A DNA stretch of 64,000 bases, from assembly GCA_963840035.1 (NCBI GenBank), contig CAWIXE010000001.1:1024001-1088000 (forward strand), read 5' to 3'. Position 1 is the stretch's first letter. Each line of letters opens with the position of its first letter. This DNA is from a candidate division FCPU426 bacterium (GTDB lineage Bacteria; Oederibacteriota; PGYV01; Palsa-1178). A model generated the notes under the pieces. It was not told the origin of the DNA, did not search any database, and saw only the letters and a list, made by a program, of their open reading frames with translations. Below are positions 14,747 to 50,965 of the stretch, piece by piece. The position numbers were made by a program, and so were the translations under genes.

Positions 14747-17745
14747 ATGAAAAAAACCCTGTATATACTGATTCTGGCGTTTATTACATCCTTTATTTAT
14801 CCGGCTGCCGTTAATGTGGCCATAGACGCATCTACGGAGCTGCACGCCTATGAGAGGGATATGGCTTTTGGATCAAATGCCCTGGGCGAATGGACCGATT
14901 TTTCCCTGTATAAAAATAACGTATACCGCTTCCAGCAGGCGGGTACCAGGTTTCTGCGTTTTCCCGGCGGATCCAACTCAAATGAATACCACTGGAACGG
15001 CAACGGCAGTTATGACGCTGACAAGGTGTGGCATGTTGACAATAGCCCTTCGCCTGTTACTTTTAAGCGCGGATTTTACAACCTGGCTTTGCACAGGGGT
15101 TCGCTTTCAAAAGGCTATGGCAAGTGGGCCATGGTAACAGACGGCGATTTGACAACAACATGGTCTTCATTTCCGGATGAAACATTTGCCCAGTGGATTT
15201 ATATAGATATCCAGACAGCGTCATACGCAGGGGTTACGGTAAACAAGGCGGTTATAGACTGGGATACGCCCTACGCGGCGCAGTACAAAGTGCAATACTC
15301 CAACGGCAACTGGAACGGCATTGGGCAGTGGATGTACAATGATACCGCATGGACAGATACGTCAGCGGGGATTGTATCCGGCGCGGGCGGGCAGGAAACC
15401 GTAAACTTCAACCCTGTCAGCGCGAAGTATGTCAGGATACTCATGCTGGCGTCTTCAGACGCGCACAACCAGTATGCCATTAAGGAAATAAAACTGTATA
15501 ACGACGCCGTACAGCTTACCAAAAACCAGGCAAACGTGAATCAGTCGCCGTCAGTTTCGTCTTCCGTGGCGCTTGGTGATAAATTTTTTGAGAATGACAC
15601 CATGGATTTCGAACAGTACATATCCATATGCAAGTCCATGACCCCGTCAGCAATTCCCATGATAACGATAAATTTTTATACCGGCACCACGCAGGAGGCC
15701 GCTGACTGGGTCTACTACGCCAACATCCATAAACTGTATGATATAAAATACTGGGAAATAGGAAATGAGAACGCGGGCAACTGGGAAGCGGGCGGGCCGT
15801 GCCTGCCTGAGCGTTACGCGCAGAGGTTCATGGATTTTTATGACGCGATGATTGCCGTGGATAACTCCATAGTCATTGCCCCGCAGTTTAATACCATAAA
15901 TGACCCGGGAAATGTAACCATGACCGCGGGGACCAATAACCCGGGCGCTTCGGATTATTACATAAGGATTTTCCTGCAGTACCTTGCGGACCACGGCCGG
16001 GCTGATATATTAAAAGGGTTATCCGTCCACAGGTATCCGACCTGGATGCCTGCCACAGAAGCTGTACCGCTGGGCATGGTGGATTTGTGGGACGCGGATT
16101 TGCCGCGCGTTAAAACATGGATCAACAGCCTGTGTACTTACCCGGGCAATGTTAAAATATGGCTTACGGAGTATAACGACGGCATAGACAGTGCGTTTAC
16201 AAACCATTTCTCAAATTCGCTTTTTGTGACGTCATTCGTCCTGAATTATCTGAGGAATGGCGGGGATTACACCACTTTTTTCCGGCCTTTTGGGACGCCC
16301 GGCCCGGGCAGCAGGATTTGACAATCTTTTCGGATTTCGGATACCTGGAAGGCGGTTCCTTAAGCGGCGCTTTATCTGATAAAAAGTACCAGCCGCGCGC
16401 CTCTTTTTATGCTTTTGACATGCTTTATAATGATTTTTCAGCGGATGATTCTTTTGGCAACATAATGGTTACAGCGACTGCAAATAATAATTCACTCAAA
16501 GTATATGCGAACAAAAGGGGCGACCGCAAGCTTTCAGTGGCGCTGGTGAACACGGACCAGTCTGTAACAATGACGGCCAATATATCAATTGCTGGTTTCT
16601 CGCCGCTTGGGTCCGCAAATACAGCCGCATATTCCAGGCAGAATTACTCATGGGTGGCAAATGGCGCGCAGTCATATGCCGCACCTGACCTGGAGCCAAA
16701 CCGGGGAAACATGACAGGCGTTACCTCAAACTTTACCCAGGATATTCCGCCATATTCCATAAAGATAATAACCATGTATGATTCTTCGCGGGCCACGCTT
16801 GTGCCATCTTCCACGCCTACCATGCTTCCCACGCTGACATACACTCCTACGGCCATGCCAGTCGGCCGTGTACTGGTGGATGACTGCGAACACCCGACGT
16901 CCGTATACAACATGTGGGGAGGTAAGTGGGAGATTTATGGAGACGGGATTTCGTCATACCCCGCTGTTTTTGAATCAGTTACATGCGACGGTGACGGGGC
17001 AAACGGCTCAAGCTGCCATGTGCGCGTGACAGGGACGGTTGCCACAAGTTCCTGGGGTTTCGGCATCAACTGCCCGCTCAACCCTTCATGGGCCGCCACG
17101 GATGTGTCCATGTATGACGGCGTATTTTTTTATTACAGGGGCGACGGCGGCGCGGCAAGGTTTGCCATGGTACAGACCGACATGTCAGGATCAAATTACG
17201 GGGTTACTTTTACCACCTCGGTTACCTGGCAGTTTTATGAACTGCCGTTTACTTCGCTTACCCATTCCACATTCGGGCCTCCGGGCGGTGTCTGGACAGG
17301 CACGAACGTCCAGGGCATGCAGATTCAGATAAAAGACGGCTGGCCTGTCGGCGGTGAGAGGATACTCGACATGGACTATGTGGGTTTTTATAAAAACACG
17401 TCAACGCCCACGCCTACGCCTACAGCGTATATTTCGCCGACTTCAACGCCCACACTCCCGGCCATGAAAAATCTTGATAAGCTTTACGTTCACCCGTCTT
17501 CATTCAGGAAGGCCGCCGGAGACGAAAAAATATGTTTTTATAACCTTACGGAAAAAGCGACAGTGCAGGTATTTAACATGGCCGGAGAGATAGTGTTTAA
17601 GGAAAGCTCGGATATTGGCGAGGCTGTATGCTGGGATTTAAGCGAGCCCAGGAGGTATAAGAAGATGGCGCCCGGAATTTACATATACGCCGTGACAAAT
17701 GAAAAGGGCGAGAAAAAGACGGGGAAGGTGGCGGTAGTACGGTAA
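14747..17745 (+). CDS. Secreted clan GH-A glycoside hydrolase (GH44/51/79-like) with inserted F5/8C (CBM32-like) domain, CBM11/CIA30-like domain, TP linker and T9SS-like C-terminal domain; frameshift near 16310
   Basis: LRFPGG, YWEIGNE (acid/base), SVHRYP, WLTEYN (nucleophile). ORFs 14747-16321 and 16318-17745 join as …GPG(Q)QDLTIFSDFGYL if one base is added. Ends KTGKVAVVR. Confidence 0.8.
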
Positions 17746-17874
17746 TTTTCAATTCTAAATTTTCAATTTTCAATTAAACCAACAACGACAGGCATAATTG
17801 CGCTTGTAATTTGTTATTGGATTGATATAATGTCCTGTAATTTAATTGAAAATTCAAAATAGAAAATTGAAAAT
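17744..17874. repeat. Heptamer-repeat inverted element (AATTTTC type) enclosing a promoter-like TTGTAA-16-TATAAT
   Basis: aattttc-aattcta-aattttc-aattttc-aatt ... aattgaa-aattcaa-aatagaa-aattgaa-aat. Confidence 0.9.
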
Positions 17875-17883
17875 GGGGTTTTA

Positions 17884-18246: not shown

Positions 18247-18279
18247 TCAATAATTATTGACCATTGTCTTTTGATATTT

Positions 18280-18430: not shown

Positions 18431-18439
18431 AAAATAATA

Positions 18440-18486: not shown

Positions 18487-18536
18487 AGGCGTAATTATAT
18501 TATCATAAAAAACCCAATAAAATATAGGCCTATTTA

Positions 18537-24259: not shown

Positions 24260-25195
24260 ATGATTGAGTTAAAAAACGTCACAAAACGTTTCGGAAACAA
24301 GACCGCTGTTGACGACATATCTTTTGAGGTTAAAAAAGGGGAAATCATCGGGTTTCTCGGGCCTAACGCGGCCGGCAAAACCACTACCATGAGGATCATT
24401 ACCGGGTTCTTCACGCCCGCGCAGGGAAGCGTTACTGTCGCAGGCATAGACGTGCTTAAAGATCCACAGAAGGCAAAGGAAAAAATAGGCTATATGCCCG
24501 AGAACGTTCCTTTATATAAGGAAATGGAAGTCACGTCATACCTGAATTTTATTGCCGGGATAAAAGGGGTAAAAAAAGATGAAATAGCGGGCAGGGTTGC
24601 AAAGTCAATAATGCAGACCGGCCTTGAAGGCGTAAAGAATTCAATAATAGCCAAGCTCTCCAAAGGCTACAAGCAGAGGGTGGGGCTGGCGCAGGCTATC
24701 ATAAACGACCCTGAAGTGCTGGTCTTAGACGAGCCCACAGTCGGGCTTGATCCCAAGCAGATAAGGGAAATAAGGGAACTTATAAAGAACATGCGCGGCG
24801 AGCGTACCATAATACTTTCCACGCACATTCTTCCCGAGGTGGCAATGACCTGCGACCGGGTCATAGTCATAAACAACGGCAGGATCGTGGCGCAGGACGA
24901 GGTCAAGAACCTGACAAACCAGAAAGCCGCGAACATATACCTTGAAGTGGAAGCGCCGAAAACCCAGGTCATTTCCGAGTTAAAAAAGATAAAGGGAGTA
25001 GCCGATGTCAGGGAGGAAACAAAGGTCGATGACGGCGTGTACTCCTACGTGATTTCCACCGAAGGGGAAAAGGACATACGGCGCGAGATAGTGGCGAAGC
25101 TCGCCAAAAACGACTGGGGCCTGCTTGAGTTTAAGCGGCAGCAGGTATCGCTTGAGGATGTCTTTTTAAAGCTTGTGACAAAGGAGGAGCTCTGA
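24260..25195 (+). CDS. ABC transporter ATP-binding protein (GldA-like)
   Basis: GPNAAGKTT, LSKGYKQR, LDEPTVGLDP, STH. Confidence 0.92.
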   Translation: MIELKNVTKRFGNKTAVDDISFEVKKGEIIGFLGPNAAGKTTTMRIITGFFTPAQGSVTVAGIDVLKDPQKAKEKIGYMPENVPLYKEMEVTSYLNFIAGIKGVKKDEIAGRVAKSIMQTGLEGVKNSIIAKLSKGYKQRVGLAQAIINDPEVLVLDEPTVGLDPKQIREIRELIKNMRGERTIILSTHILPEVAMTCDRVIVINNGRIVAQDEVKNLTNQKAANIYLEVEAPKTQVISELKKIKGVADVREETKVDDGVYSYVISTEGEKDIRREIVAKLAKNDWGLLEFKRQQVSLEDVFLKLVTKEEL

Positions 25196-25196
25196 T

Positions 25197-25973: not shown

Positions 25974-25974
25974 T

Positions 25975-30831: not shown

Positions 30832-33800
30832 ATGTTTATAAAACGGAATATAAAAGCATCCAGAATGATAAAAACAATGATTTCAATCGTTGTTGTTTTC
30901 ACGTTAACATTCATGTTTCAGTTTACATACGCAGCTCCAACCCCTAATACGAATGCTACTTACCTTGCCTGGGTTGACAGTTCAACCAATCCGCAGGGGC
31001 AAATACATATTTTTGGAGTCATCCCCAATACAAAAGTTACTGTGTACTCAACTCCTTTAAATGGGACAACAATTGCAGGCCCGACAACCATAACCAATAT
31101 TAACCTCCCGGTTGAAGGGTTTCCCATAGACTGGAGAAGTTTAAACGGCAATGTCCCGTTTGGTCAGATGTTTTTTAAGATTACTTCTGATTATCCTGTG
31201 ATATGGGAATCCGGAAACGTGAATATAGGATCAAATTTTGATTATGAAATAGGCGTTTTGTCATTAAACGGAACTTTAAGAGGGAGAACATTTTATACGT
31301 TCATGCAGCCTCTTTCAGCTGGCGGGGTGGCCGATGTTCTGACAGTGTTTAATCCGGATGCGGTACCTAAAAATATTACTGTTATGAAATGGAACACGGG
31401 TACAACAGCATATGACATTCCTGTTGCGGGAGGAACCTTTGCAGTGCCGGCTGGCGGGGTTTATACTTTCGCGCCTCCGGCGGCAACAGAGCTGGGATAC
31501 TATAAGGTTGTATCTGACAGCGATGTAATGATGTTTAAAGGTGTCGCGCAGAATTCTGACAATGACAATTGGTTTGAACACGGTTCTGACTGGATTTCAG
31601 GATCAAAAATAGGCACACAGGTTTATGGAAAATTTGGCGCTTTAGATACGAAAATGACCATAACAGGAATCACAGGGGGTATGATAAGTTACGACGTGTA
31701 CTATATGGATTATCCCGCGATGAATACATCGTCAACGGTATGGACGCTTTTAAGCAGCGGGGTAGTTGCGCAGGGCGCGGGTGCAAGTATAAATCCTCCT
31801 ATTAACGGCGGTATATTTAAGGTTATAACTACCGGCGGGGAAGTTCTGGTCGGCGGCGGTTCGACAATAATGACCAGTATGTGGGGCGATGGAGATTATG
31901 TTCCGGGATCCATAAACAAAAGCCCGCTCGATGTTGATTTTTATTTTACAACAGGAAACAACGGGAGCGGCGGCGGCGGCAATCCGGTTTGCTCGATAGT
32001 GTGCCCTACCGCAGGTACGTCAGTGAGCATATCTCCCGCAGGGCCGGTAATGACAGGACCCGCGACAACAGGGGCAGAAGACATGGCTGTGACATTTTCA
32101 GATCTGCTGCCGAACACCACTTATCACGTCACTTCAAACCTGCCTGTTTACTGTTTTTTTGAGAACGGCACAGGTTCTGAAAAAGCAATGACACTTTCTT
32201 ACATGACGGTGAAAAGACCCATCATGATAGACAAAAGCGCGAATGTGGCGCGGGCGCATGTCGGCGATACTATAACATACTGGATGAACTGGAAAGTTGA
32301 CGAGTCAAATACCATGCCATACCAGGCATATGCGTGGGATACAGTTCCAACGGAGTTTAGCATACTAAGCGTAAATCCGGCGCCTACATCACAGACAGGC
32401 AATTACATGTGGTGGGACTTGGGCGTAAGGAATGCCGGCGATTCAGGGGCTATGACAATTACAGCGCAGATAACAGCCGCCGCGATAGAAGGCGATACTT
32501 ATACAAATATCGGCATGGCATTTATGCCTGATACCATGCAGTTCCCGAACCAGTCTTCCGTGCCGATACTCATAGTGCCGCGGCAGCTGGAAGTGCTAAA
32601 AACGGCAAACAGGCCTTCTGGTACGCAGGGGGATACTGTGACATATTCGATTAACTACGCCAATACATCAGGCCTGGCGCTTACAAACGTTGTCATTACC
32701 GATTCTGTTCCTTCAGGGCTTTCATACCTTACATCCATACCGGCAGGCATATACACCCCGGCAAACCGGACCGTGCAGTGGTTTTTCGCGTCCATGGCTG
32801 ACAGGGCGTCAAATACCCTGACAGTGGTGGCGACTATTCTGAATACAGCCCCGGTAGGTTCGGTACAGACTAATTCGGTATTTTCTACAGCGGATCAGAC
32901 AGTGCCGGATTATTCCGAAGCGGATATTACGGTTTTGAATTCACCGCTTGACCTGACAAAAACCGCCAGCCCGTCTCAGGCTGTAAAAGGTGACACGATA
33001 ACCTTCACGCTTTCTTATCAAAATTTAACTTCCGGCGGGGCTTTTGCGGACAACCAGGGAATCAGCGTAAATTTTCATAATAATAACACAGCGGCAACAT
33101 CGCAAAGAATAAGCATGTATTATAATATTATTAATACAAACAATTTTCCCGTAGATATGCAGAATATCAGAATAAAGTACTATTTTAACGACCTTACCCG
33201 CGACCAGGATGGTTTTGGTTATGCGCAGGACTGGGTGTCGCCCGGGGTAACGCCCATACAGGGGGTTCAGGGGATAGGTTATACGGGGACGAATCTTGTG
33301 CATACGACAAAATTCGGAACTCATATGATTCCTGCAAACACTTCAAATACTGAGGCAAGGCTTTATATAAAGGATAAAAGCAGTTGGGTTAATATGGACA
33401 TGACAGATGATTATTCTTACGAAGGCGCGGCGACATCTACATACCACTACTGGAATAAAATTGTGGTTGAATATTATCTGAACGGCACCTGGATGGTTAT
33501 CCAGGGAGAGCCTCCGGGAGGGGTAAATGTCAACGGTGTTGTGGTAACAGATGATGTGCCGCCCTGTATCACCTATGGCGGCACTATAGGCGCGCCGGCC
33601 GGGATTTTTTCAGCCGGGACCATAACCTGGAATGTGCCAACGCTCATACCCTACGAAAAAGGTACTGTCCAGTGGTATGGCACATCAGACGCGACCTGCG
33701 GACAATATGTGACAAACGTGGCGCAGATAGCCGCACCCGGATACGGCCCGTATTCATCCAATGTCGCGGTTGTGAATTTCATTCCACCGCCGCTTTCAAT

Positions 33801-36475
33801 TACTAAAACCGCTTCGCCCTATCTCAACAGGCCTGGGGATACGGTTACATACTGGATTAATTTTATGAATAATAATCCGGCGCTGGATCTGGTTGGAGTA
33901 ACACCTGGAGTAACTCTACGTTCGGCAAATAAGGTATCAGGAACATTTCAAAGTTATCAGATGAATTTTAGGTTCTATAATAGTACCGGTAGCTCCATAG
34001 ACCCTACGAATTACAGGTTTATATATTATTTTAATGATAATCTTGCAAACTGGGGAGGAGCATCCGCGACAGGCATAACGTATCAACCGCAATGGAAAAC
34101 ATGCGGTTCATTATCGGCGTCATTTGTCGATATGGCGCCGGGATGTCTGGCAGGAAAATGCTGGCAGGCCAAGCTAATACAGTACAATACCGGATGCGGG
34201 TTGCTGGCTAATGGCAGTTACAATGAAATGCAAAACACATGGTACTGGCCGTCGTATTTACCAGAGTATAATTCCACTAACGACTATAGTTATTTGTTAT
34301 CGGACGGTGGAAATGCCGGATCAATTTATGCGCTTAACCCGAATATAGTCGTGGAACAAAATGTGGCTGGCGTATGGAAACTCGCGTACGGCATCTATCC
34401 TGATTTTCCGGCGCCGCTTTCAAATGTAAGCTTTTGGGACACCATCCCTGCGGACCTGCAGGTGCTTACGGTCAACGCTACCGGGCTTGGTTTTAGCGTG
34501 ACGGGAAATCTTATCAACACAAATATTGCCAGCATGCCGGGGCAGCAGGCATACAGCGTGACTGTAGTCGCGCAGGTCAGGGCCGGGGCGGCGCCAGGAG
34601 TTGTCACAAATACCGCGAACGTAAAACCGCAGGGCTTAAATAACGCCAGCGACGACGCGCCCATAGAGATCTATGTATATACGCCGACAAACACGCCCAC
34701 ATCCACGGCCACTTATACCAGAACAGCCACCGCTACACACACGCCGACTTCTACGCAAACACATACAAGGACGGCTACGCCCACAGACACCGCGACAGCC
34801 ACATATACCGCCACCTCGACGCCGTCTTATACGTTTACACAGACTTCAACATATACCATGACGCCGACATATACAGCCACACCAACGCAGACATTCACAT
34901 CCACACAAACCGACACGGCTACGCATACGCCGACATTTACGGGCACGCCGACTGCGACATTTACCAGGACTGCCACGGAAACTTTTACGCCAACCGCGTC
35001 ATTTACATTTACATACACGATGACGGCAACTCCTACCGTTACTTATACATTTACGGTCACGCCGACATCGACGGATACATTCACAATGACTTTTACCCCG
35101 ACTGCCACCGGGACATTCACGGACACTCCGTTCCACACGCCGACTTTTACTCCGACCGCCACGCAGACATATACTGCCACACCGACATACACTGCCACAA
35201 ATACATATACCCTTACAATGACCGCAACGCCCACTTTTACAGAAACAGACACACTGACATATACCCCCACTTATACGCTTACTTACACCAGGTCTTCAAC
35301 CCCCACGCATACAGTTACCTTTACCGACACATATACTTTTACCATGACACCCACATATACAGCCACGCCCACGCAAAGCAGCACTTACACATGCACTGAT
35401 ACATTGACCGCGACGCAGACATCAACGCCATCTTTTACGGCGACGCCGACATACACCCCCACATATACATTTACCGTGACTCCGACAGCCACGCAAAGCC
35501 CTACGGTGTCACCTACACCGCCGCCATACCCGTATATCATGAAAATTGAGGCTTTCAATACAGCCGGAGAAAGGGTAAAGATAATCGTGCAGTCGCCCAT
35601 ATCGGACAGGCCGGGTGATATTTTGCTGCTCATAAACGGAAAAACAACGGATATGTTCAACCCCGGAACACAGAGCCTGGAAATAAGCCTTCCGGGGATA
35701 ACCTGGCCGGGAAACCAGGCCGGAACATCTTCGCAGTTCTTCTGGGACGGGACTACTGATATGGGGCAGGACGTATCGCAGGGAATGTATTATATCAAAT
35801 TTGAAATAACAGACAGTTACGACCATGTCGTAACAAAGGTTATGCAGGTGCAGATAGTCCGCACGCAGGAACAGGTAAAAATATCAATCTTTAACAGCGC
35901 GGGAGAAGTTGTGCGCGTCATGTACGGGGACCACCTGCCGGCCGCGCAGGCTAAGCTGACTGTGGATAATACGGTAACAACGGGCGGCAGCGCGGAGAAT
36001 CATATTTTCATAGGCTACGGCGGCGGGCTTCATGTCATGTGGGACGGGAAAAATGAAACGGGCATAGCCGCGGCAACAGGGGTTTATGAGGTGAAGCTTG
36101 AAGTGGTAACCGCGGAGGGCTTAAGCACCATAGCGGCAAAATCAATAACAGTATTTAAGCTGGATAAAAACGACATTATAGCGGGGATAAAATCATACCC
36201 GAACCCCTACAGGCTGAAAAAAGGCGCGGTAAAACCGGCTGTTATAAGCTGGGCTTCGCCGTATGAAGGTATTGCGAACATTGGCGTGTATGATAAGGCC
36301 GGGGAAAAAGTACGTATGATAACCGGGCAACTCTCAGGGGGGCAGGCGTACTGGGACATGAAAAACTCTTCGGGCGAACAGGTTTCAAGCGGAATTTATA
36401 CCATCATAATAAACGCGAGAAGCTGTACAGGGAAATTCGCAAATGTCGGTTGTAAAGTTCGCGGTGATAAAGTAA
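30832..36475 (+). CDS. Giant secreted, apparently non-catalytic protein: N-terminal beta repeats, 4 DUF11 domains (2 carrying CBM3-like inserts), ~280-aa Thr-rich stalk, 3 FlgD-Ig/T9SS-CTD-like domains; +1 frameshift near 36430
   Basis: Signal peptide; (L/I)xKTA…GDT(I/V)TY…D.(V/I)P…TN.A repeats; [10 protein letters not shown]…DDYSY…GEPP; YPNPY…WDMKN..G..V.SGIY. The shifted frame ends VVKFAVIK* at 36475. Start may be 30865. Confidence 0.8.
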
Positions 36476-36563
36476 GGGTGTGTTTTGTACTACTCCTGTC
36501 TCCAATCTCCTGTCTCGTCTTTACTAATTCGGTGAATGTTATGGAGAATGTTCCAAAATCCCC

Positions 36564-36591
36564 TTGAAATTATACATTTAAGCGATATAAT
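36564..36591 (+). promoter_or_regulatory. Sigma70-type promoter
   Basis: TTGAAA-16-TATAAT. Confidence 0.55.
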
Positions 36592-39564: not shown

Positions 39565-39640
39565 AATTTTCAATTTTATATTTTCAATTTTCAATTAACA
39601 GCGGGAACAAACCGCGTCGTCCTGCCTTTAATTGAAAATT
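39565..39640. repeat. Heptamer-repeat inverted element between convergent genes
   Basis: Near-identical to 45347-45442 but lacking 3 heptamers. Confidence 0.85.
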
Positions 39641-42600
39641 AATCTTTAATAACAAACAATTTGCCTTTCTTAGCCGTATTGCTTCCCGGGTTTACAATCA
39701 CAAAATAATATATCCCCTGGGATATTGTTTTGCCTAATTTATTCTTCATGTCCCATGTCGTCCTGACCGAAGTGCACATAATGTCTTTCACGCTCTCGCC
39801 TGAGAGGGTGAAAATCCTTATCATGGAACCCGGAACTATGTTGTCAAATTTGACTGTGGTGTCTTTATTGAGGTTATAAGGGTTTGGAAAGACCACCGGC
39901 CTGCTTCTCGGGAACAATGACAAATCCGAGAACTGGGGCGGGTGTTTCTGGAACGAGGGCGTATATACCAGGTCGTTATAATCCGTGCCGGCTCTGTTAA
40001 TTATCATCTCCTGGCCAGGAGGGTTGGAAGTGACGCGCACGCTGTACTCAATGCGTATCTCTTCGCCGGGGGGAAGAGTGAACGGGTCGCCATACTGGTC
40101 TAATGAAAGGTCCCAGTGAAGGTAAGTGGATGAGGAATCAGCCGCAAGGGGCATGGCGAATCCGATATTGGTAAGCGTTACGTATGTGGGCACTGAATCC
40201 CAGACTGATATGTTTGTAACGGGCGAATCAGTATTGTTGGTGATCAATATTGTATAGTTGATGACAGACCCCAGTTTGGGGTCCTCGCCAGCGGATAAAA
40301 GTTCTATTTTAATGTTAACCGGCGAAGGGAGAGGCGTTAAGGTTACGGTAAGTGAAGCTGTGGGTGTGGAAGAAGGCGTATAAGTCGGGGTATAGGTGCG
40401 CGTATCACTGGAAGTGGGCGTGGAAGTAAGAGTGCGAGTGTTTGTGGAGGTAGGTGATGCTGTGGGCGTGTTTGTGAGTGTCTTTGTGCCTGTGGCAGTC
40501 GGCGTATCAGATGATGTCGGTGTTGCTGTCTGCGTATCAGTAAGGGTCCTTGTGCCCGTGAAAGTCGGCGTCATGGTGGCGGTGGAAGAAGGCGTGGCAG
40601 TATCAGAAGATGTGGGCGATGGCGTGAAAGTCTGGGTCGCGGTAAAAGTGTTGGTCCATGTCCTGGTGACAGTCGGTGTATTTGAAGATGGGGTATCCTC
40701 GGGTGTTGAAGAAGGGGTGTGGGTCATGGTAAAAGTGGCTGTGAGGGTGTAAGTAAGAGTCGGCGTGGCTGAAGACGACATTGTGGGAGTCAGGGTAAAG
40801 GTATAAGTCCCTGTCGGGGTGTTAGTCGATGTCGGCGAAGATGAAACAGTAAAAGAAGGTGTGGCTGTAAAAGTGGCTGTTGAAGTCCAGCTCGGGGTAA
40901 AGGTCGGCGAGAAAATGGTGACGGTCCATGTGTCCGTTACAGTCGGAGTATAGGTGCGTGTCGGTGTGTTTGTGGGCGTTGATGACGATGTGGTTGTGTA
41001 TGAATAAGTGGATGTGTATGAATATGTGGATGTAGGCGTTGCGCTTTGCGTGGATGTTTTTGTGCATGTGGGTGTGGCTGTCAGGGTGAATGATGGAGTG
41101 GATGTCCTTGTGGGGGTAAAGGTCGGCGTTGTCACGCCGCAGGGTATATCTATTGATGACTGCGCAGCTATGGTATAAGTCACGCCCTGCGGAACGGCAA
41201 AAGCAGTGTTAACAACAGGGCCGCACGGGCCGCTGGCCACTGCGTACCATTGATAGGATATTGAGGAGCCCTTTAACATCTGAGTTATGACCGGCCATTT
41301 GATATCCCCGGCCGCGGTAACGGTGACGGAATTTGTGCCTCCGAGGTAATTCAAACCCGCAGGCAGCGGGTCATGTATCAGCGTGTTGAAAGCGGTATCA
41401 AGTTCCGTGCGCCAGGATGATACAACGTGCGCGCCTCCGGTGTACTGGGTGAATGCCGGGACAGAACCGTTGGCTATGCCTGCAAAGCCGGCTCTTATGG
41501 GGATACCGCTTACAGACAAATCCGCCGCTGGCGGAAAGTTTGTGTCGGTAATGTTCTTCTGGAAGATGCTGATAGTGTCGCCGTTTAAAACTATTTTTAT
41601 ATCCAGATTCTTCATGGATGTCGCTATTTTTGCCGTGCCTATGGCTGTCGCGCCGTTATATATCTGTATCCTGTTGCCGTCCCACTGGCTGTTAAACCTT
41701 ATGTATATGCCGTCCGCGACAGCAGTGCCGGCCGTATGCCTTACAACTACGGCAAAATCCTGCCCGTCCTGTATGTTTGCCCTGAGCTGAACTGTGCCAT
41801 TTATGCCGTGGGAATAATTATAGGTGTATATGCTGGAGTCAGCTGAAGTGGAAGCCTGAGAACCGTTAAAGGTCCAGGTGCCGGTTGCTCCGTATCTTTT
41901 TGTCCAGTTCCCGGCTGTAAATACGTTTTGCGATGCGTCTGCGGAATTGACAACCGAGCCGTTTAAACTTGTATAATCTATGATATATGTAAATGTGGAG
42001 TTCAAAGCCGGGGATGCATTGGTTGCCGTTTTAGTAATTGAAGCCGGCGCGGGCGGCGGAGGCGGGACATACGCGCATGTGACGGAAACAGTCGCGGAGT
42101 CCGCCACAGGCGATTCGTTGTCGCCGTATATAAAGGCTGTGTTTATCATGTCGGGGTTTACTATCCCGGAAGGGCAGGAACCGTTGACAGTAACCCAGTA
42201 TTTTAATTCAGCGCACTGGTTTACAAGCATGTTGCCCGCGTTTACTGTTATGTTCCTGCCGGATACGGTCTTGGTCGCCGAGTCAGAATCAATAAACCCG
42301 CCGAAGGTAACGCCCGTGGGAAGGCTGTCTATGACAAATACATTCTTAACCTGCCTGCCCGGTTGAGGCCCGTCTCCAAAAACCCTGCGCCAGGTATATC
42401 CGTCAAATTCCTCGACCAATACGTTAGAAAGGGATGGTTTAGTGCCGTTGCATGAGGTAAGGTTGATGGTCGTGACCGGGATTGATGTTCCGTCCCCCTT
42501 GGTCCAGTCCGGGGATATCGGATAAGGGAAATATGCAAGGCCGTTGCCGTAGCCAACCTGTGAATACGGCGCTGTAATTGGAAGCTGAGACCAGTCATCC

Positions 42601-45326
42601 GACCAGTCCTGCGCAGGCTCGCCGTTGCCTGCAATTGATACTGCGGTGACCAGCGGCTGAAGAGTGCCTATGCCGCCCGGGTAATGCATTGAAGTGTCAT
42701 TGTTAAAATATTTATGCAAAATGTGGGTTGGCAGCGAAGTGGAAGCCTGGAAGCCGATTATGAGCCTCTGGTTCCAGCAGTTGATAGCGTCGCAATTGGA
42801 TACCAAATCCTCGGTGGAAAGGCTTAAACCAAGCGTTCCCTCGTTGTTGACCGTTGTGACCACCCAGCCTGTCGGATTTGTCGCCGCGTTGTATACGCCG
42901 CGGTAGGTCGAATTCACAAAGTATGAAACCCTGTAATTCCCCCAGTCAATCCACGGTTCGGTTGCTTCGTGCGCCCCGCGTATGGTCAAAACTTTCCTGC
43001 CGGCCACAGTAAACGGGTTCTCGGCTATCGAGAATGTCACACCGTACCTTCCGCCGTTTATCCATCCGGCGCTGGAAGAATCGCAGTAGCTTATGGTATA
43101 AGTGATAGTGTCGCCCGGGTTAGCCATGTGGTTTGACGCTGTTTTTGTAAGGGCAAGCGCGGCAGCCACGATATCCACGCAGTTGGTCTTGCATATTTTT
43201 GTCACTTCATTGGGCTGGTCGTTGCTGGTCCAGCCTGTACCGTTCGTACAGGTAATGTCAGCTGTTGTGCAGTACTTCGAATTTGGAGCGTCATCGCGCA
43301 CCCTCACGACAAGCGTAACTCCGCCCATTGTGGCGTTTAAGTTTGAATAGCTGTGCAGCCCCGGCACGGCGCCAATGCTCCAGGTGATGGTTTTTCCTGA
43401 CTGCGTATACGGCCCCGTGGCGCTTGAAAAATCAAAAGCCGCAGGAAGTGTCTCTGAAATCACAACGCCTGTGGCGTCAGTTGAACTGTAGTTGCGGTAG
43501 TTTATCCAGTATGTAAGGATGTCGCCTGTAAAGGCGTAGGTCTTATTAATCGCCTTATAAATTTTCATGTTTGCCTTTTTATACTCGGGCGAAGCCAGGT
43601 TTATGTTATTCTCAACCGGGTCCGTATAATTGCCTGTTAAAACAAGCAGCCCCAGCATCCTGAACCATTCATGGAAATATACCGGGACGCCTGTTAAGTA
43701 CAGGTCGCCCTTTACCTGGGAATCCCATGTTACAAACAGTTCCCTGAGCATAGTTTCCATAAAGGCGAATTTTTGGGAGTTTAAGATGGCGGCCGAGGCT
43801 GAGCCCATGGTGTAATTAGTATGCCAGTCATTGGCCGCCCCGTTCATGACGCTGCCGTCGAGGAAATAGCCCTGCCTGGTTTCAGCGGCGCCTTTGAATG
43901 TCAGGCCGTAAGTACCCCATTGCATGCAGCGAGTGCCTGCCGCGTCCTCCAGGAAGTTGGCAACTTTTAAGGATGACAGGTATTCATAATTATTGCCGGT
44001 TGAGCCGTCGATTGTATGTGTGGATGGATTCCAAGTATTTGCCGCCGCCGGGTTGCCATAAAGCGTATAATCAAGGGCGTGCCTCCATATGGAGCGAAAA
44101 TCCTCCCCGTCGTTCATGTTCGCAAATGTAGCGTCTGTCGCTGTGGCGTTATAATACCCGGCGATAGGGTAAGCGTGTTTCGCGTTGAGCCTGCCCTGCA
44201 GCCAGAAGTCAGAGGCGGCGGCGCGCTCAAGCTGGTCGACATTGAACCTGCCGAAAGGAGTGCCGTTCCAGCGGAGATGCGTGGCGTCGGTTAAGTCAAG
44301 CGCCGCGTTGTTCCTGATAAGAGCGTCAGCAAACGCGCGCCAGTATGAAGGGCCGGTGTAATCGTAAAAATTTTCGTTTGTCGCGGCTGGGCCTTCGGTA
44401 AAACCGTAAGGGCCGTCCCATGGGTCTGTGGCCCCGTTAGGGGACGGCACAAAATTGGTGTTTTCGTTCTGGGTATTTCCGCCTTTATGATATCCGTCAA
44501 AACCTACGACGCCTGTAATCCAGTCCCTGGGCTGGTTAGTGTGGTCGTCGCCTAAATCCAGGGCTACAAGGTAGCGTATGGCCGCAAGCGCCATGTCCTT
44601 GTATTTGATGGCCTTTAAACCGCCGGTATTTGTTTCCGGGCCGTGGCCGCCCGTAGCGTAGTAACCGGTGAAATCGCCCCACTGATACCAGGCAAGCAAA
44701 AGCGCCATGGCAATATCCACGTCCCCGTCAGTTGCAGAGTCACCCGGCGGCGCGTAAACAGAAATGAAATGCTGCCCGAAATTCGCGCCGTTCGTGCCCC
44801 TGGAAACCCAGGAACCGTCTGAATACTTCATGGCGTTCATGAGGCGTCCGTTTTCGACAAGCCAGAACCAGATGCCGTCAAAAGTTTTCTTGTCAGCCAT
44901 CAACGCCGCGCACAAAAGCGCGTAACCCTGTCCCTCGGAGCAGTTGGCGTTATTCGCCTGGACATTTACCATCTGAAAATTTACCGGGTTGGCGTTATTT
45001 GCCAGCTTGTAATTGGGGGGCGCGCCGTCATAGGCAAACCTGTTTGCGAATATCTGCCACCCTTCGGCTATCCATTTTTCCATTTCCGCGTGCGACACGC
45101 CGTCAGGCTGGTGCGCAAAATCAGAGAGGGAATAAAGGGTCGCCTGGCCGCCGGCTTTATAGTTTTTAAACTGTGGAAAAGGCATGTTGGGCCCTGTGGT
45201 TAAGGGGTAGTTTGAATTTATGGTGACAGCCGCGGCGTTATATACGTTAATGGCGGCAAAAAAATCGCCGCAGGGAAACGTGAGAAATAACAAGGCTGTA
45301 ATGATTATTATTTTTTTAAAACGCAT
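39639..45326 (-). CDS. Secreted multidomain GH8-like hydrolase: GH8 + DUF11s with inserted CBM3-like and jelly-roll modules + Thr/Ser stalk + DUF11 + T9SS-like CTD
   Basis: Signal peptide; SEGQGYALL; SATDGDVDIAMALLLA..QWG; FPNPY…IFTLSGE.V…WDMKN..G..I.QGIY…KGKLFVIKD. Confidence 0.88.
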   Translation of the reverse strand: MRFKKIIIITALLFLTFPCGDFFAAINVYNAAAVTINSNYPLTTGPNMPFPQFKNYKAGGQATLYSLSDFAHQPDGVSHAEMEKWIAEGWQIFANRFAYDGAPPNYKLANNANPVNFQMVNVQANNANCSEGQGYALLCAALMADKKTFDGIWFWLVENGRLMNAMKYSDGSWVSRGTNGANFGQHFISVYAPPGDSATDGDVDIAMALLLAWYQWGDFTGYYATGGHGPETNTGGLKAIKYKDMALAAIRYLVALDLGDDHTNQPRDWITGVVGFDGYHKGGNTQNENTNFVPSPNGATDPWDGPYGFTEGPAATNENFYDYTGPSYWRAFADALIRNNAALDLTDATHLRWNGTPFGRFNVDQLERAAASDFWLQGRLNAKHAYPIAGYYNATATDATFANMNDGEDFRSIWRHALDYTLYGNPAAANTWNPSTHTIDGSTGNNYEYLSSLKVANFLEDAAGTRCMQWGTYGLTFKGAAETRQGYFLDGSVMNGAANDWHTNYTMGSASAAILNSQKFAFMETMLRELFVTWDSQVKGDLYLTGVPVYFHEWFRMLGLLVLTGNYTDPVENNINLASPEYKKANMKIYKAINKTYAFTGDILTYWINYRNYSSTDATGVVISETLPAAFDFSSATGPYTQSGKTITWSIGAVPGLHSYSNLNATMGGVTLVVRVRDDAPNSKYCTTADITCTNGTGWTSNDQPNEVTKICKTNCVDIVAAALALTKTASNHMANPGDTITYTISYCDSSSAGWINGGRYGVTFSIAENPFTVAGRKVLTIRGAHEATEPWIDWGNYRVSYFVNSTYRGVYNAATNPTGWVVTTVNNEGTLGLSLSTEDLVSNCDAINCWNQRLIIGFQASTSLPTHILHKYFNNDTSMHYPGGIGTLQPLVTAVSIAGNGEPAQDWSDDWSQLPITAPYSQVGYGNGLAYFPYPISPDWTKGDGTSIPVTTINLTSCNGTKPSLSNVLVEEFDGYTWRRVFGDGPQPGRQVKNVFVIDSLPTGVTFGGFIDSDSATKTVSGRNITVNAGNMLVNQCAELKYWVTVNGSCPSGIVNPDMINTAFIYGDNESPVADSATVSVTCAYVPPPPPAPASITKTATNASPALNSTFTYIIDYTSLNGSVVNSADASQNVFTAGNWTKRYGATGTWTFNGSQASTSADSSIYTYNYSHGINGTVQLRANIQDGQDFAVVVRHTAGTAVADGIYIRFNSQWDGNRIQIYNGATAIGTAKIATSMKNLDIKIVLNGDTISIFQKNITDTNFPPAADLSVSGIPIRAGFAGIANGSVPAFTQYTGGAHVVSSWRTELDTAFNTLIHDPLPAGLNYLGGTNSVTVTAAGDIKWPVITQMLKGSSISYQWYAVASGPCGPVVNTAFAVPQGVTYTIAAQSSIDIPCGVTTPTFTPTRTSTPSFTLTATPTCTKTSTQSATPTSTYSYTSTYSYTTTSSSTPTNTPTRTYTPTVTDTWTVTIFSPTFTPSWTSTATFTATPSFTVSSSPTSTNTPTGTYTFTLTPTMSSSATPTLTYTLTATFTMTHTPSSTPEDTPSSNTPTVTRTWTNTFTATQTFTPSPTSSDTATPSSTATMTPTFTGTRTLTDTQTATPTSSDTPTATGTKTLTNTPTASPTSTNTRTLTSTPTSSDTRTYTPTYTPSSTPTASLTVTLTPLPSPVNIKIELLSAGEDPKLGSVINYTILITNNTDSPVTNISVWDSVPTYVTLTNIGFAMPLAADSSSTYLHWDLSLDQYGDPFTLPPGEEIRIEYSVRVTSNPPGQEMIINRAGTDYNDLVYTPSFQKHPPQFSDLSLFPRSRPVVFPNPYNLNKDTTVKFDNIVPGSMIRIFTLSGESVKDIMCTSVRTTWDMKNKLGKTISQGIYYFVIVNPGSNTAKKGKLFVIKD

Positions 45327-45346
45327 TTAAACCGCCCTTAAACATA

Positions 45347-45442
45347 ATTTTCAATTTTATATTTTCAATTTTCAATTAACAACGGGAACAAACCGCGTCG
45401 TCCTGCCTTTAATTGAAAATTGAAAATTTAGAATTGAAAATT
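45347..45442. repeat. Heptamer-repeat inverted element (AATTTTC type)
   Basis: aattttc-aatttta-tattttc-aattttc-aatt ... aattgaa-aattgaa-aatttag-aattgaa-aatt. Confidence 0.9.
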
Positions 45443-48400
45443 AATCTTTAATAACAAACAACTTGCCTTTCTTAGCCGTATTGCTTCCCGGGTTTACAAT
45501 CACAAAATAATATATCCCCTGGGATATTGTCCTGCCTAATTTATTCTTCATGTCCCATGTCGTCCTGACTGTGGTGCACATGATATCCTTTACGCTCTCG
45601 CCCGAGAGGGTGAATATCCTTATCATGGAGCCCGGGACTATATTGTCAAATTTAACGGTTGTGTCTTTATTTAAGTTATACGGGTTCGGGAAAACAACCG
45701 GCCTGCTTCTCGGGAACAATGACAAATCCGAGAACTGGGGCGGGTGTTTCTGGAACGAGGGCGTATATACCAGGTCGTTATAGTCGGTGCCGGCCCTGTT
45801 AATGATCATGTCCTGTCCCGGCGGCGTGGAAGTGACGCGCACGCTGTACTCAATGCGTATCTCTTCGCCGGGGGGAAGAGTGAACGGGTCGCCATACTGG
45901 TCTAATGAAAGGTCCCAGTGAAGGTAAGTGGATGAGGAATCAGCCGCAAGGGGCATGGCGAATCCGATATTGGTAAGCGTTACATATGTGGGCACTGAAT
46001 CCCAGACTGATATGTTTGTAACGGGCGAATCAGTATTGTTGGTGATCAATATTGTATAGTTGATGACAGACCCCAGTTTGGGGTCCTCGCCAGCGGATAA
46101 AAGTTCTATTTTAATGTTAACCGGCGAAGGGAGAGGTGTTAAAGTTACGGTAAGTGAAGCTGTGGGTGTGGAAGAAGCCGTATAAGTCGGGGTATAGGTG
46201 CGCGTATCACTGGAAGTGGGCGTGGAAGTAAGAGTGCGAGTGTTTGTGGAGGTAGGCGATGCTGTGGGCGTGTTTGTAAGTGTTTTTGTGCCTGTGGCAG
46301 TCGGTGTGTCAGATGACGTAGGCGTGGCTGTCTGCGTGTTTGTAAGTGTCTTTGTGCCTGTGGCGGTAGGCGTGTCAGATGATGTAGGCGTGGCTGTCTG
46401 TGTGTCTGTAAGTGTCCTTGTACCTGTGAAAGTCGGTGTCATTGTGGACGTGGAAGAAGGCGTGGCAGTATCAGAAGATGTGGGCGATGGCGTGAATGTC
46501 TGCGTCGCTGTAAAGGTATTTGTCCACGTCCTGGTGGCTGTGGGAGTATTAGACGACGGTGTATCCTCGGGTGTGGATGATGGTGTGTGCGTCATGGTGA
46601 ATGTGGCCGTGAGCGTGGAAGTAAGCGTGGGTGTGGCTGAAGAAGACATAGTGGGAGTCAGGGTAAAGGTATAAGTCCCAGTAGGGGTATTAGTCGATGT
46701 CGGAGAAGAAGAGGAAGTGAAAGTAGGGGTGGCGGTAAAAGTGGCCGTCGAAGTCCAGCTCGGGGTGAAGGTCGGCGAAAAAATGGTGACGGTCCATGTA
46801 TCCGTTACAGTCGGCGTTGAAGTGCGTGTCGATGTATTTGTGGGTGTGGATGACGATGTGGCTGTATATGAATATGTGGATGTAGGTGTCGCGCTTTGAG
46901 TGGCGGTTCTAGTAAACGTTGATGTTGATGTGACGGTAGAAGATGAAGTCGGCGTCTTGGTGGGCGTGAAAGTAGGGGTTGTGGCCCCGCAGTTGACCCT
47001 GACAATTGTGGCGGCGATTATCGGGGTTATTATTCCCTGGGGATAAACCCTGACAGTGTTTGTTATATTCTGGCACGAGCCGGTGACCTGGCCCCACCAT
47101 GTGAAGGCGGCGGCCTGGTTCAGATTAAGCACTGCTATTGTCGGCCAGCTGACAACACCGGTATTTAAGGCAGCGCCGCCGGATCCGCCGATAAATGAAA
47201 CACCGGCAGGCAGGGTGTCAAGGACCGCGGTATTATAGGAGGTGTCAAGTTCCGAGTGCCATGATGTCAGCCAGTGGGTGCCGTAATTATCAGTAACGGT
47301 TCCGGGAATACCGTTTATAACGCCGGCGTAACCTGGCTGGACTGTCATGCCTGTCATGGAGACAGGCGTGGAGAATCCTTCAAAACTCTGCGTGAGAGTG
47401 TTGTCAATATAACATACAATAGTGGGGCCGTTTAATACAACTTTAAGGTCGAAATCGGCATTTATCAGGATGCTTTGAGTTGTGCCCACCTGGGTTGTAC
47501 CGTTCCAGAATCTCACCTCACCATTAACCGGCGGGTTTGGTTTAAACGTAATATGCACGCCGTTTGCCGGGCCGTTAACGCCTGTGTGCCTGACAGTTAT
47601 TCCAAATACCGCAAAATTCTGCATGTGCACACGCGCGATGATAACGCCGTTCGTTCCGTTTGAGGAATTGTTTGTCATGATTGTGCTTTGATTCGAAATA
47701 TTTGATATTTTTCCTCCAGTGACAGTCATGTTCGTAGCCGGGGTGTTGCGGTTTGTCCAGCTGGCGGCGGAAGTGAGCGGGTCGTCTATTATGGAACCGT
47801 ATGTGTTGGAATAATTAATCGTGTACGTTACTGTATCGCCTGTATTATATGTTGCCTGGCTTGCGGTTTTAGTCAGTGATGCCGGCGCCGGGGTCGAAGT
47901 CGGAACAGCGGCGCAGGTGATGGTCACGCGTTTTGCGTCAAAGACGTAGGACTCATTATCCGCGATAGCGAAGGCAATGTTATCGGCGTACTGGTCAAGG
48001 CCCGGGCAGCCGATGGGGTTTACAGTAGTCCAGTATTTTCTGGTCTGGCATTCATTGACAAGCATTGAGGCGGTTGTCCATTGCAGTGTCCTGCCACCCG
48101 GTTGTGTCCCTGCGGTACCGAGCCATCCACCAAAAGTAACCTGGGTGGGAAGAGAATCCGTAACAACGATATTATCCAGCTGCCTTCCGGGCTGCGGGCC
48201 GTTGCCGAAAACCCTGCGCCAGGTATAGCCGTCAAATTCTTCTATGAGGATATTATCCACGCTGTGCAAAGAGGTGTTCGTGGCATCGCAGGCTTCTTTG
48301 TTTATTTTTGTCACAGGCACTGATGTCCCGTCGCCTTTTGTCCAGTCAGGCGTTATGGGCCAGAATGGGTCATTCTGGGTTGCTGTTTCCCAGGCCGCCG

Positions 48401-50965
48401 CCTGAGACCAGTCGTCGGTCCAGTCCTGGGGATTATATCCCGCGGTGATTCTTCCTTTTATTATGAAAGGGGCAAGCGTATTGCCCATGTGTATTAATGA
48501 GGGAACACCGGCTACATTGAATAGTTGGTGTGTCGGTATGGTTCCGGCGTTTCCAAACTGAAGCATAATCCTCTGGTTCCAGGAGCCGCGCGCGTCTGTA
48601 CCGGGCACCAGGTCCTCGGTGACAACCTGCTGTGAACCGTTTGGAAAACCAGCCACATAATCCAGCGCGATGGTCCATGCCGCGCCGTGATAGGATGAGT
48701 TCAGGAAGTATGAAATCCTGTAATTCTGCCAGTTGATGACCGGCTCTGTCGCGGCGTGGTTGGCGCGCAGATAAAAAGTAAGCGCGTCGGTTGCCGTGCC
48801 GGGGACCGAGTCCACGGCAAATGAGAAATTAACCCCGGACCTGCCGCCGTTTATCCAACCTGCTTTTGATGAATCGCAGTACTGCAGGGTATAGGTTATA
48901 GTGTCCCCGCCGTTTGCTAGATATGAAGAGGCTGTTTTTGTTATGGTCAGGGCCGCGGGAACTATGTCCACGCAGTTGGTCTGGCAGGTGTCTGTTACTT
49001 CGTTGGGGATATCATTTGACCGCCAGCCTGAGCCGTTAGTGCAGCGGATGTCGGTTGTATTGCATATTTTTGTGAGGCCCGCGGTATCCTTAATGCGCAC
49101 CACGAGTGTAATGCCTCCCTGTGTGGGGACGATATTCTGGTTCTGTACGCCTGTGACGGTAAAAGGCCCCCATTCATAAACGTTGCCGCCGAGAGGCGTG
49201 GCTGCCGGAACAGACGATACAAAGTCATACTCTGCCGCAAGAGTGTCGCGGACTACCACGTTATTCGCGGTAAGCGTGCCGTAATTGCGGTAATTCATGC
49301 GGTATGTGATGAGGTCCCCTGCGAATGAATAAGTTTTATTGACGGCTTTATATACTTTCATGTTGGCGGTTGGCGCTATGTTACACGGGTTGGTATGATT
49401 GCCGGTTAATATCATGAGGCCAAGCTGCCTGAACCAGCCGTGGTAATAATGCGGCACTGAAGTGATGTAACCGTCCCCGGGGGTTGTGGCGTCCCATAGT
49501 ATCATGGCTTCCCTGAAAAAATCTCCGGCTAAGGTATAGTCGTTATTTTGTTTGGAACCTACGAGTATGCTCGGCGCGCCTGTCCCGAAATACCAGTTTA
49601 AGTGGAACTGGAAGGATACGGGATTTCCGTCCATGTCGTAATCATGCGCCACGCCCGCGGCGCCCTGATAGCTGATGGGCCCGGCATTCGCCCATTTGAT
49701 GCAGGGTATGTCGTTTTTGAAAAAATTATAAACTTTGAGAGCCGTGCTGTATTGATAAGAGTTGCCTATGGCTGTCGGCTGATGCGTGGTTGGGTTCCAC
49801 GTAGTCGCCGGGTCTCCAAACCACAGGTTGTCAATTCCTTTTCTCCACATGCCCCTGAAATCCTCGCCTTCGTTGAACCTTCTGAATGAAGCGGTCTGCG
49901 TGGCTTCGTTTACGCTGTATATGCCGACAACCGGGAACACATGGCTCAAGCTGAGCTGGTTTTGCAGCCAGGCATCCGCGGCTGAAGCGCGAAGGTATTG
50001 GTTTACGTTTGACCAGCCGCCTGTGCCGGGGGTATTATCCCTGGCAGCCCCGTATGACTGGAGCGCGCAAGCGAAAGTATTTAAATATCCTGAACCTGTA
50101 TAATCATAATAGTTTTCTGAAGGCCCGGCAAACTGCGGCCGCGCGCCGAATAAGGCAAGGCCTGTGGTCGTGCCCCAGGCTGTCGTTTCTCCTGAAAAAC
50201 CGCCGCCTGTGTTGCCGCCGCGCGCGTAACCGTCAAACCCAATATCTCCCGAGGTCCACTGATTGTCGCCTAAGTTGTTCCCTTCGTCTTTTTCTACCAT
50301 GAAGCGCATCATGTCGAGGGCCATCTGCCTGTACTCGATTTCGTTTCCGCCTGCCCCTGCCGCGCCTGTTCCGCCCGGAGCGTAATACCCGCTTCCATTG
50401 CCCCACTGTTTCCATGCTATGAGGGCTGCCATTGCTATGTCCATGTCGCCGTCAGCAGCGGTATCCGAACCAGTCCCGTATACTGCCGGAGCGTGGGAGC
50501 CGAAAACATAACCCGCGTCATTTACGGCTCCGGTTGAATATATTTTGGTCTTATGGAAATAACCGTTCTCGTTAAGATAAAACCATAACCCGTCAAAAGC
50601 GTCCTTGTCGCACATAAGCGCCGCTGCCAAAAGCGCGTAACCGTGGCCTTCAGAGCACCATGGGGAGGAGCTGTCCCTTATGAGCTGGACTGTCTTTCCT
50701 CCGTAAGTAATTGAACCGTTGTAGTTGAATTCGTTGGAATGTATCTTCCATGCCTCGCGGAGCCATTTTTCCATTTCAGCGTGAGAAACGCCGTCAGGCT
50801 GTACTGACGAGTCTGAAGCGATTTAATGCCATTGGCGTAATTTAGGAACTGGGGGAATGGGAGAACCGGATTTCCGGAATTGATATTTATGTTAATTGCT
50901 GAAAAGACAAAAATGGGCATAAGCATAGATATGATGACTGTAAGCGTTAAAATTTTATGTTTCAT
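45441..50965 (-). CDS. Paralogous multidomain GH8-like hydrolase; frameshift at 50816-50817 separates the signal peptide
   Basis: ORFs 50678-50965 and 45441-50774. Adding one A at 50816 gives SLSDSSVQPDGVSHAEMEKW, matching the paralogue's SLSDFAHQPDGVSHAEMEKW. SEGHGYALL, AADGDMDIA. Confidence 0.88.

Follow-up and report, generated by a model that had tools for sequence, protein, structure and literature searches.

Candidate cargo proteins for type-IX-secretion-like export in a diderm bacterium of the Goldbacteria type

Four large proteins encoded between positions 14747 and 50965 of a 64,000-nt stretch of bacterial DNA (C1:1024001-1088000, here called the window; positions given without a contig are counted within it) each combine a signal peptide, glycan-related modules, a threonine-rich linker and a C-terminal domain (CTD). 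They raise the question of whether such proteins leave the cell by a route related to the type IX system of protein secretion (T9SS) in an organism outside Bacteroidota, as a preliminary description of the window had proposed, and which machinery would then be used. The proteins are called here cargo A (14747..17745, plus strand, ~1000 amino acids [aa]), B (30832..36567, plus strand), C (39639..45326, minus strand) and D (45441..50965, minus strand), and they come from a genome of 3.46 Mb in 3 contigs that is 98.3% complete and 0.48% contaminated. Our reading, to which we give a probability of roughly 0.68, is that a diderm of the Goldbacteria type exports the four proteins as cargo by a pathway like that of type IX secretion. 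The sequence comparisons suggest a motor-less or differently energised T9SS-like variant for the surface display of glycan enzymes. The cargo genes of the window are ordinary looking, and the interest lies in the system behind them.

All four proteins end in a β-sandwich of ~85 aa, which by family models, conserved motifs and modelled fold is homologous to the type A CTD of the T9SS (TIGR04183/FlgD_ig), in agreement with the resemblance to this domain and to the FlgD-Ig fold that had been pointed out before. When the tails were scored against both models, A, C and D passed TIGR04183 in the genome search (27, 25.0 and 24.8 bits; cut-off, 23), with A also reaching 25.0 bits in the protein scan, and B passed FlgD_ig only (50.8 bits; cut-off, 27). 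The model of the PorZ C-terminal end matches A, B, C and D. A hidden Markov model (HMM) built from the four tails places the domain at 17482..17742 in A (plus strand; residues 389-475 of the second of two open reading frames [ORFs]) and at 36193..36475 in B (plus strand; residues 1788-1874, with a frameshift near 36415-36425); it lies at 39642-39893 in C and at 45444-45695 in D. The first motif is degenerate in A, where HPSS stands instead of PNP. An alignment of 19 tails shows conservation of PNP, GxY and a basic last strand, which we take to be the classical CTD motifs. The AF2 model of the tail of C (pLDDT, 87.3) has seven strands, and its top Foldseek matches are PorZ 5m11 (E 2.8e-5, TMq 0.71) and PorU 6za2, followed at lower rank by 8gl8_D (the substrate CTD of a translocon complex), the RgpB CTD 5ag8 and FlgD.

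The tail is not confined to the window. The HMM of the four window tails found 48 ORFs across the genome at E<=1e-3 and, after iteration, 105 ORFs, of which 93 end their match no more than 5 aa from the stop and 100 no more than 25 aa from it. The five non-terminal exceptions are four PorV-like fusion proteins with internal copies and the frameshifted B. Among the 99 CTD ORFs that are not PorV-like (median length, 1007 aa), a stretch rich in threonine, proline and serine (T/P/S-rich) was present in 77, compared to 48 of 1268 control ORFs, and a crude signal-peptide rule was passed by 70, compared to 432 of the 1268 controls; several of the 29 that fail the rule have a visible signal peptide further in or are frameshift fragments. 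The domain is hence typically terminal (100/105), well beyond what chance would give, and found on proteins with signal-peptide-like starts (70/99), rather than internal and unlinked to export. Since 105 ORFs carry the tail and 77/99 have the T/P/S-rich stretch, the "stalk plus tail" design is genome-wide and not peculiar to the window. The earlier idea of a lineage-specific tag does not hold, the tail being part of the widespread TIGR04183/FlgD_ig family, and the same applies to the treatment of 14747-50965 as one system. The genes dnaK, groEL and dnaJ, an ABC transporter, htrA, an M48 peptidase gene and a 450-aa ORF (38212-39564) lie between the four cargo genes, and these housekeeping genes rule out a single operon, locus or "system"; ~100 cargo genes are distributed over all three contigs. 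With housekeeping genes standing between them, the four count as cargo of a genome-wide system and not as a locus.

As already remarked in the preliminary description, the window contains no T9SS core gene, and homologues of core components occur elsewhere in the genome. The search that it had called for, covering sprA, porV, porU and gldK/L/M/N, was productive in part: one SprA homologue and 40 barrels of the PorV/PorQ family were found, and porU and gldK/L/M/N were not detected in the genome. The SprA homologue (C2:374859-381356, 2165 aa) matches TIGR04189 with 188.2 bits (E 1.5e-55) and bears N-terminal fn3 domains. A profile of 19 relatives from the phylum matches the SprA of Flavobacterium johnsoniae (6h3i_A, E 3.6e-43). 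A single-sequence phmmer search of the ORF against the PDB returned solely fn3 proteins such as titin, and a single-protein pattern search gave 141 pattern matches with no relative among them. The homologue is present in 95 of the 99 genomes of the phylum (as delimited in GTDB). By these comparisons the genome has one true but divergent SprA homologue. Its neighbourhood (C2:362603-384589) encodes a CTD protein, a 771-aa PorV-like barrel fused to Ig and OmpA domains, a protein with tetratricopeptide repeats (TPR) and PD40, a TPR protein, a LacI protein, a Wzy_C/O-antigen-ligase-like protein, a GT9 heptosyltransferase, a 232-aa membrane protein and fn3 proteins that bear a CTD. Two of the fn3 ORFs, of 818 and 250 aa and 3 bp apart, jointly match single ORFs of ~1050-1100 aa downstream of sprA in relatives, and this fn3 CTD gene next to sprA is by that comparison probably another split gene.

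For the barrels, all eight of the PorV-like ORFs tested passed the cut-off of NF033709 (PorV/PorQ family) at full length, with 128-192 bits, and one ORF matches the PorV in the PDB (E 9.6e-5). Of the 40 barrel genes, 23 come immediately after a CTD ORF of the same strand (22 when one with a PorV-like upstream neighbour is omitted), where roughly 1-2 CTD-then-PorV pairs would be expected by chance, assuming ~105 CTD genes among ~3000 genes, a gene count that is itself an estimate. Barrels of this family occur in all 51 of 51 high-quality genomes of the phylum, in 7 to at least 34 copies each.

The proposed position of the organism outside Bacteroidota agrees with its closest relatives, which are metagenome-assembled genomes (MAGs) titled Goldbacteria, a candidate phylum outside Bacteroidota. 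A search with an 8-sequence alignment found relatives of the SprA-like protein at 37-46% identity in MAGs (18 loci). Four of the 18 loci are titled Candidatus Goldbacteria or Goldiibacteriota, and the remainder are titled "uncultured Spirochaetia bacterium," "uncultured bacterium" or "bacterium," with one titled Methylomirabilis; a more distant relative, with 25% identity, bears the title UBA9088. In the NCBI listing, Goldiibacteriota has the rank of a candidate phylum, and its position is uncertain. Doud et al. (PMC7031533; this and the other papers cited here were accessible in part) placed Goldbacteria beside Firestonebacteria and Elusimicrobia and described them as captured on cellulose particles and as cellulose-bound degraders with enzymes of glycoside hydrolase (GH) families 5, 8, 9 and 44 and many carbohydrate-binding modules (CBMs); the accessible part of that paper does not mention a T9SS for them. 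That the cell has an outer membrane to be crossed, as had been argued from pldA, is in line with the presence of this gene for outer-membrane phospholipase A1, a marker of a diderm envelope, on the minus strand of the window (3660..4427; Pfam PLA1, 86.4 bits).

No complete canonical T9SS was found in the genome. The models of the GldL/GldM motor (TIGR03513 and TIGR03517) and of GldN gave no match in it, all of them without a positive control. GldM was found in none of the 99 genomes of the phylum and gave no match in an outside genome either (G099, UBA9088), which thus provided no control. The PorU model NF033707 matches this genome at CTD positions alone (926 and beyond), and Peptidase_C25 has 0 matches here, although two of the seven further genomes in the family have it. 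In these two genomes the full Peptidase_C25 domain lies in large proteins (open frames of 1508 and 1045 aa; G098:C10:37729-39003 and G096:C141:1230-2612). Three GldK-like matches, all of them generic lipoproteins with an FGE-sulfatase domain (C1:904898-905779, C2:947463-948779 and C2:780347-781573), were rejected as PorK: the GldK model gives them 26-35 bits where its cut-off is 350, and no gldLMN-like genes adjoin them. They are a better fit to TIGR02171, a paralogous family of Fibrobacter succinogenes, on which they score 50-73 bits, below its cut-off. PorP/SprF was likewise discarded as the barrel family, with matches below 20 bits and TIGR03519 over its cut-off in none of eight genomes.

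Since the GldLM/PorLM motor and the GldKN/PorKN ring were not detected, energy coupling would be either absent or supplied by another source. One eight-gene, same-strand operon outside the window (C2:1329528-1343156) encodes a giant CTD-tagged Ig-repeat protein (1861 aa), a PorV-family barrel with an Ig tail (NF033709, 106.2 bits), a 1037-aa TPR lipoprotein, a TolQ/ExbB-like protein, two TolR/ExbD-like proteins, a TonB-like protein and a 304-aa protein. The TPR lipoprotein matches generic TPR models more strongly than PorW/SprE, for which its signal is weak (104 bits). Around its orthologue in 19 relatives, the complete set was found in the same order in 11, and of the others 5 are cut by contig or locus ends and are otherwise consistent and 3 are partial; the identity of the orthologue falls to 31-34% in distant families. 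That this operon powers SprA-type export is speculation on our part. In having one ExbB/TolQ-like gene, two ExbD/TolR-like genes and genes for a TonB-like protein and a giant TPR lipoprotein, it resembles the Agl-Glt "core complex" (aglRQS plus gltC/D/E/G) in the accessible part of Luciano et al. 2011 (PMC3169522), from which it differs by its association with a PorV-family barrel and with the giant Ig-repeat protein that carries a CTD.

The architecture of the four window proteins is largely as first described. All four are present with the features attributed to them, but three of them (A, B and D) are not intact ORFs in this assembly. Signal peptides can be seen directly in the translations of all four, glycan modules are indicated in each by Pfam or PDB matches (F5/8-type-C and GH51-like in A, CBM_3 in B and partial GH8 in C and D), and the threonine-rich linkers correspond to T/P/S-rich stretches, of ~30 aa twice in A and ~280-295 aa once each in B, C and D. 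Cargo A consists of a signal peptide, a GH51-like barrel of the clan GH-A type, two short T/P-rich linkers around a further domain and the type A-like CTD. It has an F5/8-type-C (CBM32-like) domain (Pfam, 42.7 bits), and its weak matches in the PDB are to a CBM32-type glucanase module (E 2.7e-8) inserted in a GH51-type arabinofuranosidase barrel (E 2e-4); its second half has no sequence match in the PDB. The gene is split into two frames (14747-16321 and 16318-17745), with the break at or near a T6 run at 16276 (split region, ~16276-16321). Of seven further genomes in the family, six have orthologues of A (69-74% identity) that are single open frames of 1010-1112 aa. Upstream of cargo A, three minus-strand ORFs (10040-11311, 11588-12127 and 12509-13588) in the region 8616-13588 have no Pfam match, and a lactonase-type beta-propeller protein adjoins them.

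Cargo B is 1911 aa long in frame and consists of a signal peptide, DUF11 repeats (64 bits), two CBM3-like modules (CBM_3, 38.1 bits), a T/P/S-rich linker of ~290 aa (34672-35544), two internal FlgD-Ig-like copies between this linker and the tail, and the terminal CTD. Its last strand, KFAVIK*, ends at ~36475 in a different frame from that of the ORF, so that the end at 36475 given before requires a frame change near 36415-36425. Shortly upstream of B, the plus-strand genes at 24260-28895 encode an ABC ATPase, an ABC-2 permease, an ABC_transp_aux (GldG-type) protein and a DUF4340 protein, a transporter set that we take to be GldA/F/G-like; an HtrA/DegP protease follows directly (28896-30269).

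Cargo C is an intact ORF of 1895 aa, and D is its tandem paralogue. The order in C is signal peptide, GH8-like domain, DUF11 repeats, central region, T/P/S-rich linker (40311-41159), DUF11-like domain and CTD. D likewise has DUF11 (Pfam) and a DUF11-like domain between its linker (46113-47000) and its tail. Its ORF (45441-50774) has 1777 aa, and a break near 50825-50835 separates the ORF start at 50774 from the signal peptide, which is read from 50965 in a different frame. Glyco_hydro_8 (PF01270; cut-off, 24) scores 39.7 bits in C and 32.1 bits in D, covering only ~90 of 341 profile positions, and GH8 glucanases in the PDB match the GH8-like domain at E 7.6e-5. Over their last ~306 residues (39642-40560 and 45444-46361; ~920 nt), C and D are 98% identical, compared to 51% elsewhere, a difference pointing to a recent gene-conversion event that covered the end of the linker, the DUF11-like domain and the CTD. 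A match to C was found in 23 of the 24 genomes of the order; its orthologues are full length (~1860-1936 aa, 47-52% identity) and often stand in tandem pairs, as C and D do here.

Several of the results weigh against reading these proteins as T9SS-like cargo, and they need to be set beside the explanations that they would favour. The SprA homologue remains just under the TIGR04189 cut-off (188.2 versus 200 bits), and the PorV-like ORFs are below the equivalog cut-offs, the best reaching 88 versus 250 bits for PorV and 145 versus 220 bits for PorQ. The four window genes have no PorV-like neighbour, the nearest being ~15 kb beyond the window. To our knowledge, type A cargo in Bacteroidota needs the motor, and we know of no precedent for a motor-less translocon. 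The models of GldL, GldM and GldN (TIGR03513, TIGR03517 and TIGR03523) matched no genome searched, and the absence of these proteins thus rests on unproven sensitivity. Together with the divergence of SprA and PorV and the PorW/SprE-like signal in the TPR lipoprotein, this would suit a complete T9SS whose motor, ring and sortase genes have diverged beyond the reach of the NCBIfam and Pfam models or are located in sequence that was not assembled. We consider this unlikely, as GldM was detected in none of the 99 genomes of the phylum, the assembly is nearly complete in its 3 contigs, the searches were able to pick up weak 19-35-bit pieces of other families, C25 peptidases were found in sister genomes and not here, and the FGE-sulfatase lipoproteins have no gldLMN-like genes beside them. 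The tail itself is also open to another interpretation. On TIGR04183, C has no more than 18.1 bits when the whole protein is scanned and B has no match, and FlgD_ig describes an Ig-like fold of general occurrence. B fits FlgD_ig better than any T9SS model, FlgD structures are among the fold matches, and internal copies, in tandem, are found in 13 ORFs and also in the PorV-like fusion proteins. These last observations would be expected if the domain were a structural or adhesive FlgD-Ig-like module for contact with the surface or with glycans, and no sorting signal, on proteins that exit by a type II secretion system, by vesicles or by lysis. This interpretation seems to us similarly improbable: the domain is strictly terminal in nearly all of the ORFs that have it, the T9SS CTD motifs are conserved, T9SS CTDs are the best fold matches, SprA and PorV-family genes are kept phylum-wide, and more than half of the PorV-like genes directly follow a CTD gene, far above the number expected by chance.

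The frame breaks raise a different doubt, which concerns this strain. A, B and D have a single disruption each, meaning that three of the four window genes are possibly dead, and the CTD gene beside sprA looks split as well (818 + 250 aa); the window genes might accordingly be decaying pseudogenes and the "system" a relic. We regard this as the least probable of the alternatives, since each gene has one break in otherwise open frames of 475-1911 aa, the break of A is at the T6 run, relatives have intact orthologues, and a MAG in 3 contigs is typical of long-read assemblies, which would be expected to contain indel errors. Because the orthologues in relatives are intact, the breaks are either recent mutations or assembly errors.

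We therefore return to the reading of the four proteins as cargo of a type-IX-secretion-like pathway and outline how it might work. The signal peptides indicate that Sec would export the cargo to the periplasm, where the C-terminal β-sandwich would serve as a type A-like CTD, as its homology and fold suggest. A giant outer-membrane translocon of the SprA type would then recognise the CTD together with PorV/PorQ-family barrels, the genes of which are present. Given that the searches found no C25 sortase of the PorU type, the tail probably stays in place, without attachment to anionic lipopolysaccharide (A-LPS); the cargo would stay on the surface with its CTD bound to a PorV-family barrel. About 22 cargo genes have a barrel gene immediately downstream, so that roughly a fifth of the cargo would sit on a dedicated barrel; the rest, including the four window proteins, would use unpaired, shared barrels. 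With the long T/P/S-rich linkers as spacers, the GH8-like, GH51-like/CBM32 and CBM3/DUF11 modules would stand off from the membrane, and the cell would break down and bind the plant glycans to which it is attached. The display of enzymes on stalks as a cohesin/dockerin-free alternative to the cellulosome, as first proposed for this window, is plausible in view of the analogous cases of Cytophaga and Fibrobacter.

A wider extension of this reading is possible, though we hold it tentatively and it is more doubtful than the assignment of the four proteins: a whole candidate phylum outside the Fibrobacteres-Chlorobi-Bacteroidetes (FCB) group, comprising Goldbacteria and their GTDB relatives, may put ~100 surface enzymes and adhesins per genome through an SprA-type pore without GldLM/GldKN or PorU, the cargo being held by an expanded family of dedicated PorV-type barrels and any energy coming from a TolQ/TolR/TonB-type motor whose deeply conserved operon also encodes a PorV-type barrel and a PorW-like TPR lipoprotein. 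If this is true, type IX secretion would have an outer-membrane core that predates the machine built around it in Bacteroidota and is found more widely. The phylum-wide set of SprA, PorV-family barrels and CTD proteins, with no motor or sortase detected, is a natural test case for which parts are needed in transport, it offers many cargo-barrel pairs for studying tail recognition, and it suggests how cellulose-bound Goldbacteria may display enzymes without cellulosomes. For annotation, the "T9SS sorting domain" labels in MAGs from outside Bacteroidota may reflect a real export route and not noise.

The range of T9SS in the literature is narrower than this. Abby et al. (PMC4793230) found T9SS solely in Bacteroidetes, a review gives the FCB superphylum as its range (PMC11205867), and BLAST hints have been reported for Chlorobi, Fibrobacteres and Ignavibacteriae (PMC5837995), all according to the accessible parts of these sources. 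Our literature search, which did not extend to subscription-only papers and supplements, found no published T9SS in Goldbacteria, Elusimicrobia or other non-FCB phyla. A related case outside Bacteroidota is that of Poribacteria, in which Kamke et al. 2014 (PMC3909097) reported TIGR04183 proteins and, in the part accessible, no Por structural genes. Both there and here a T9SS-type tail occurs with canonical machinery not found, but in contrast to Poribacteria, SprA and PorV-family parts were identified here and are phylum-wide. With Fibrobacter and Cytophaga, the organism shares T9SS-type tails on GH5/GH8/GH9-type enzymes and CBMs and, on the reading proposed here, surface cellulose degradation without cohesin or dockerin: cellulases of Fibrobacter succinogenes carry the BTD/Fpm-1 tail, which is TIGR04183 (Raut et al. 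2019, PMC6851124), and Cytophaga hutchinsonii has T9SS-dependent, cell-bound cellulolysis (PMC11205867). Unlike Goldbacteria as placed in PMC7031533, both belong to the FCB superphylum.

Compared to the T9SS of Bacteroidota (F. johnsoniae and Porphyromonas gingivalis; PDB 6H3I, 8GL8, 5M11, 6ZA2 and 5AG8), the set described here shares the Sec signal and the C-terminal β-sandwich with PNP, GxY and a basic last strand, the giant SprA homologue, the FadL-like barrels of the PorV/PorQ family and a cargo rich in glycoside hydrolases and adhesins. It differs in its occurrence outside Bacteroidota and the FCB group, in the lack of detected GldLM/PorLM, GldKN/PorKN, PorU and PorP/SprF, in its 40 PorV-family paralogues where Bacteroidota have one or few, and in the N-terminal fn3 domains of SprA. 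In F. johnsoniae, all type A tails use a single PorV, and type B cargo has cognate PorP/SprF-like shuttles (Paillat et al. 2025, PMC12618676, accessible part). Many cargo genes here are like those for type B cargo in being directly followed by the gene of an outer-membrane barrel of their own, but the tail here is type A-like and the barrel is of the PorV/PorQ family and not PorP/SprF. By analogy with type B cargo, this adjacency suggests dedicated carrier or anchor pairs. The present set thus departs from the known cases in its lineage, the undetected motor, ring and sortase, the expanded PorV family and the pairing of type A-like cargo with PorV-type barrels.

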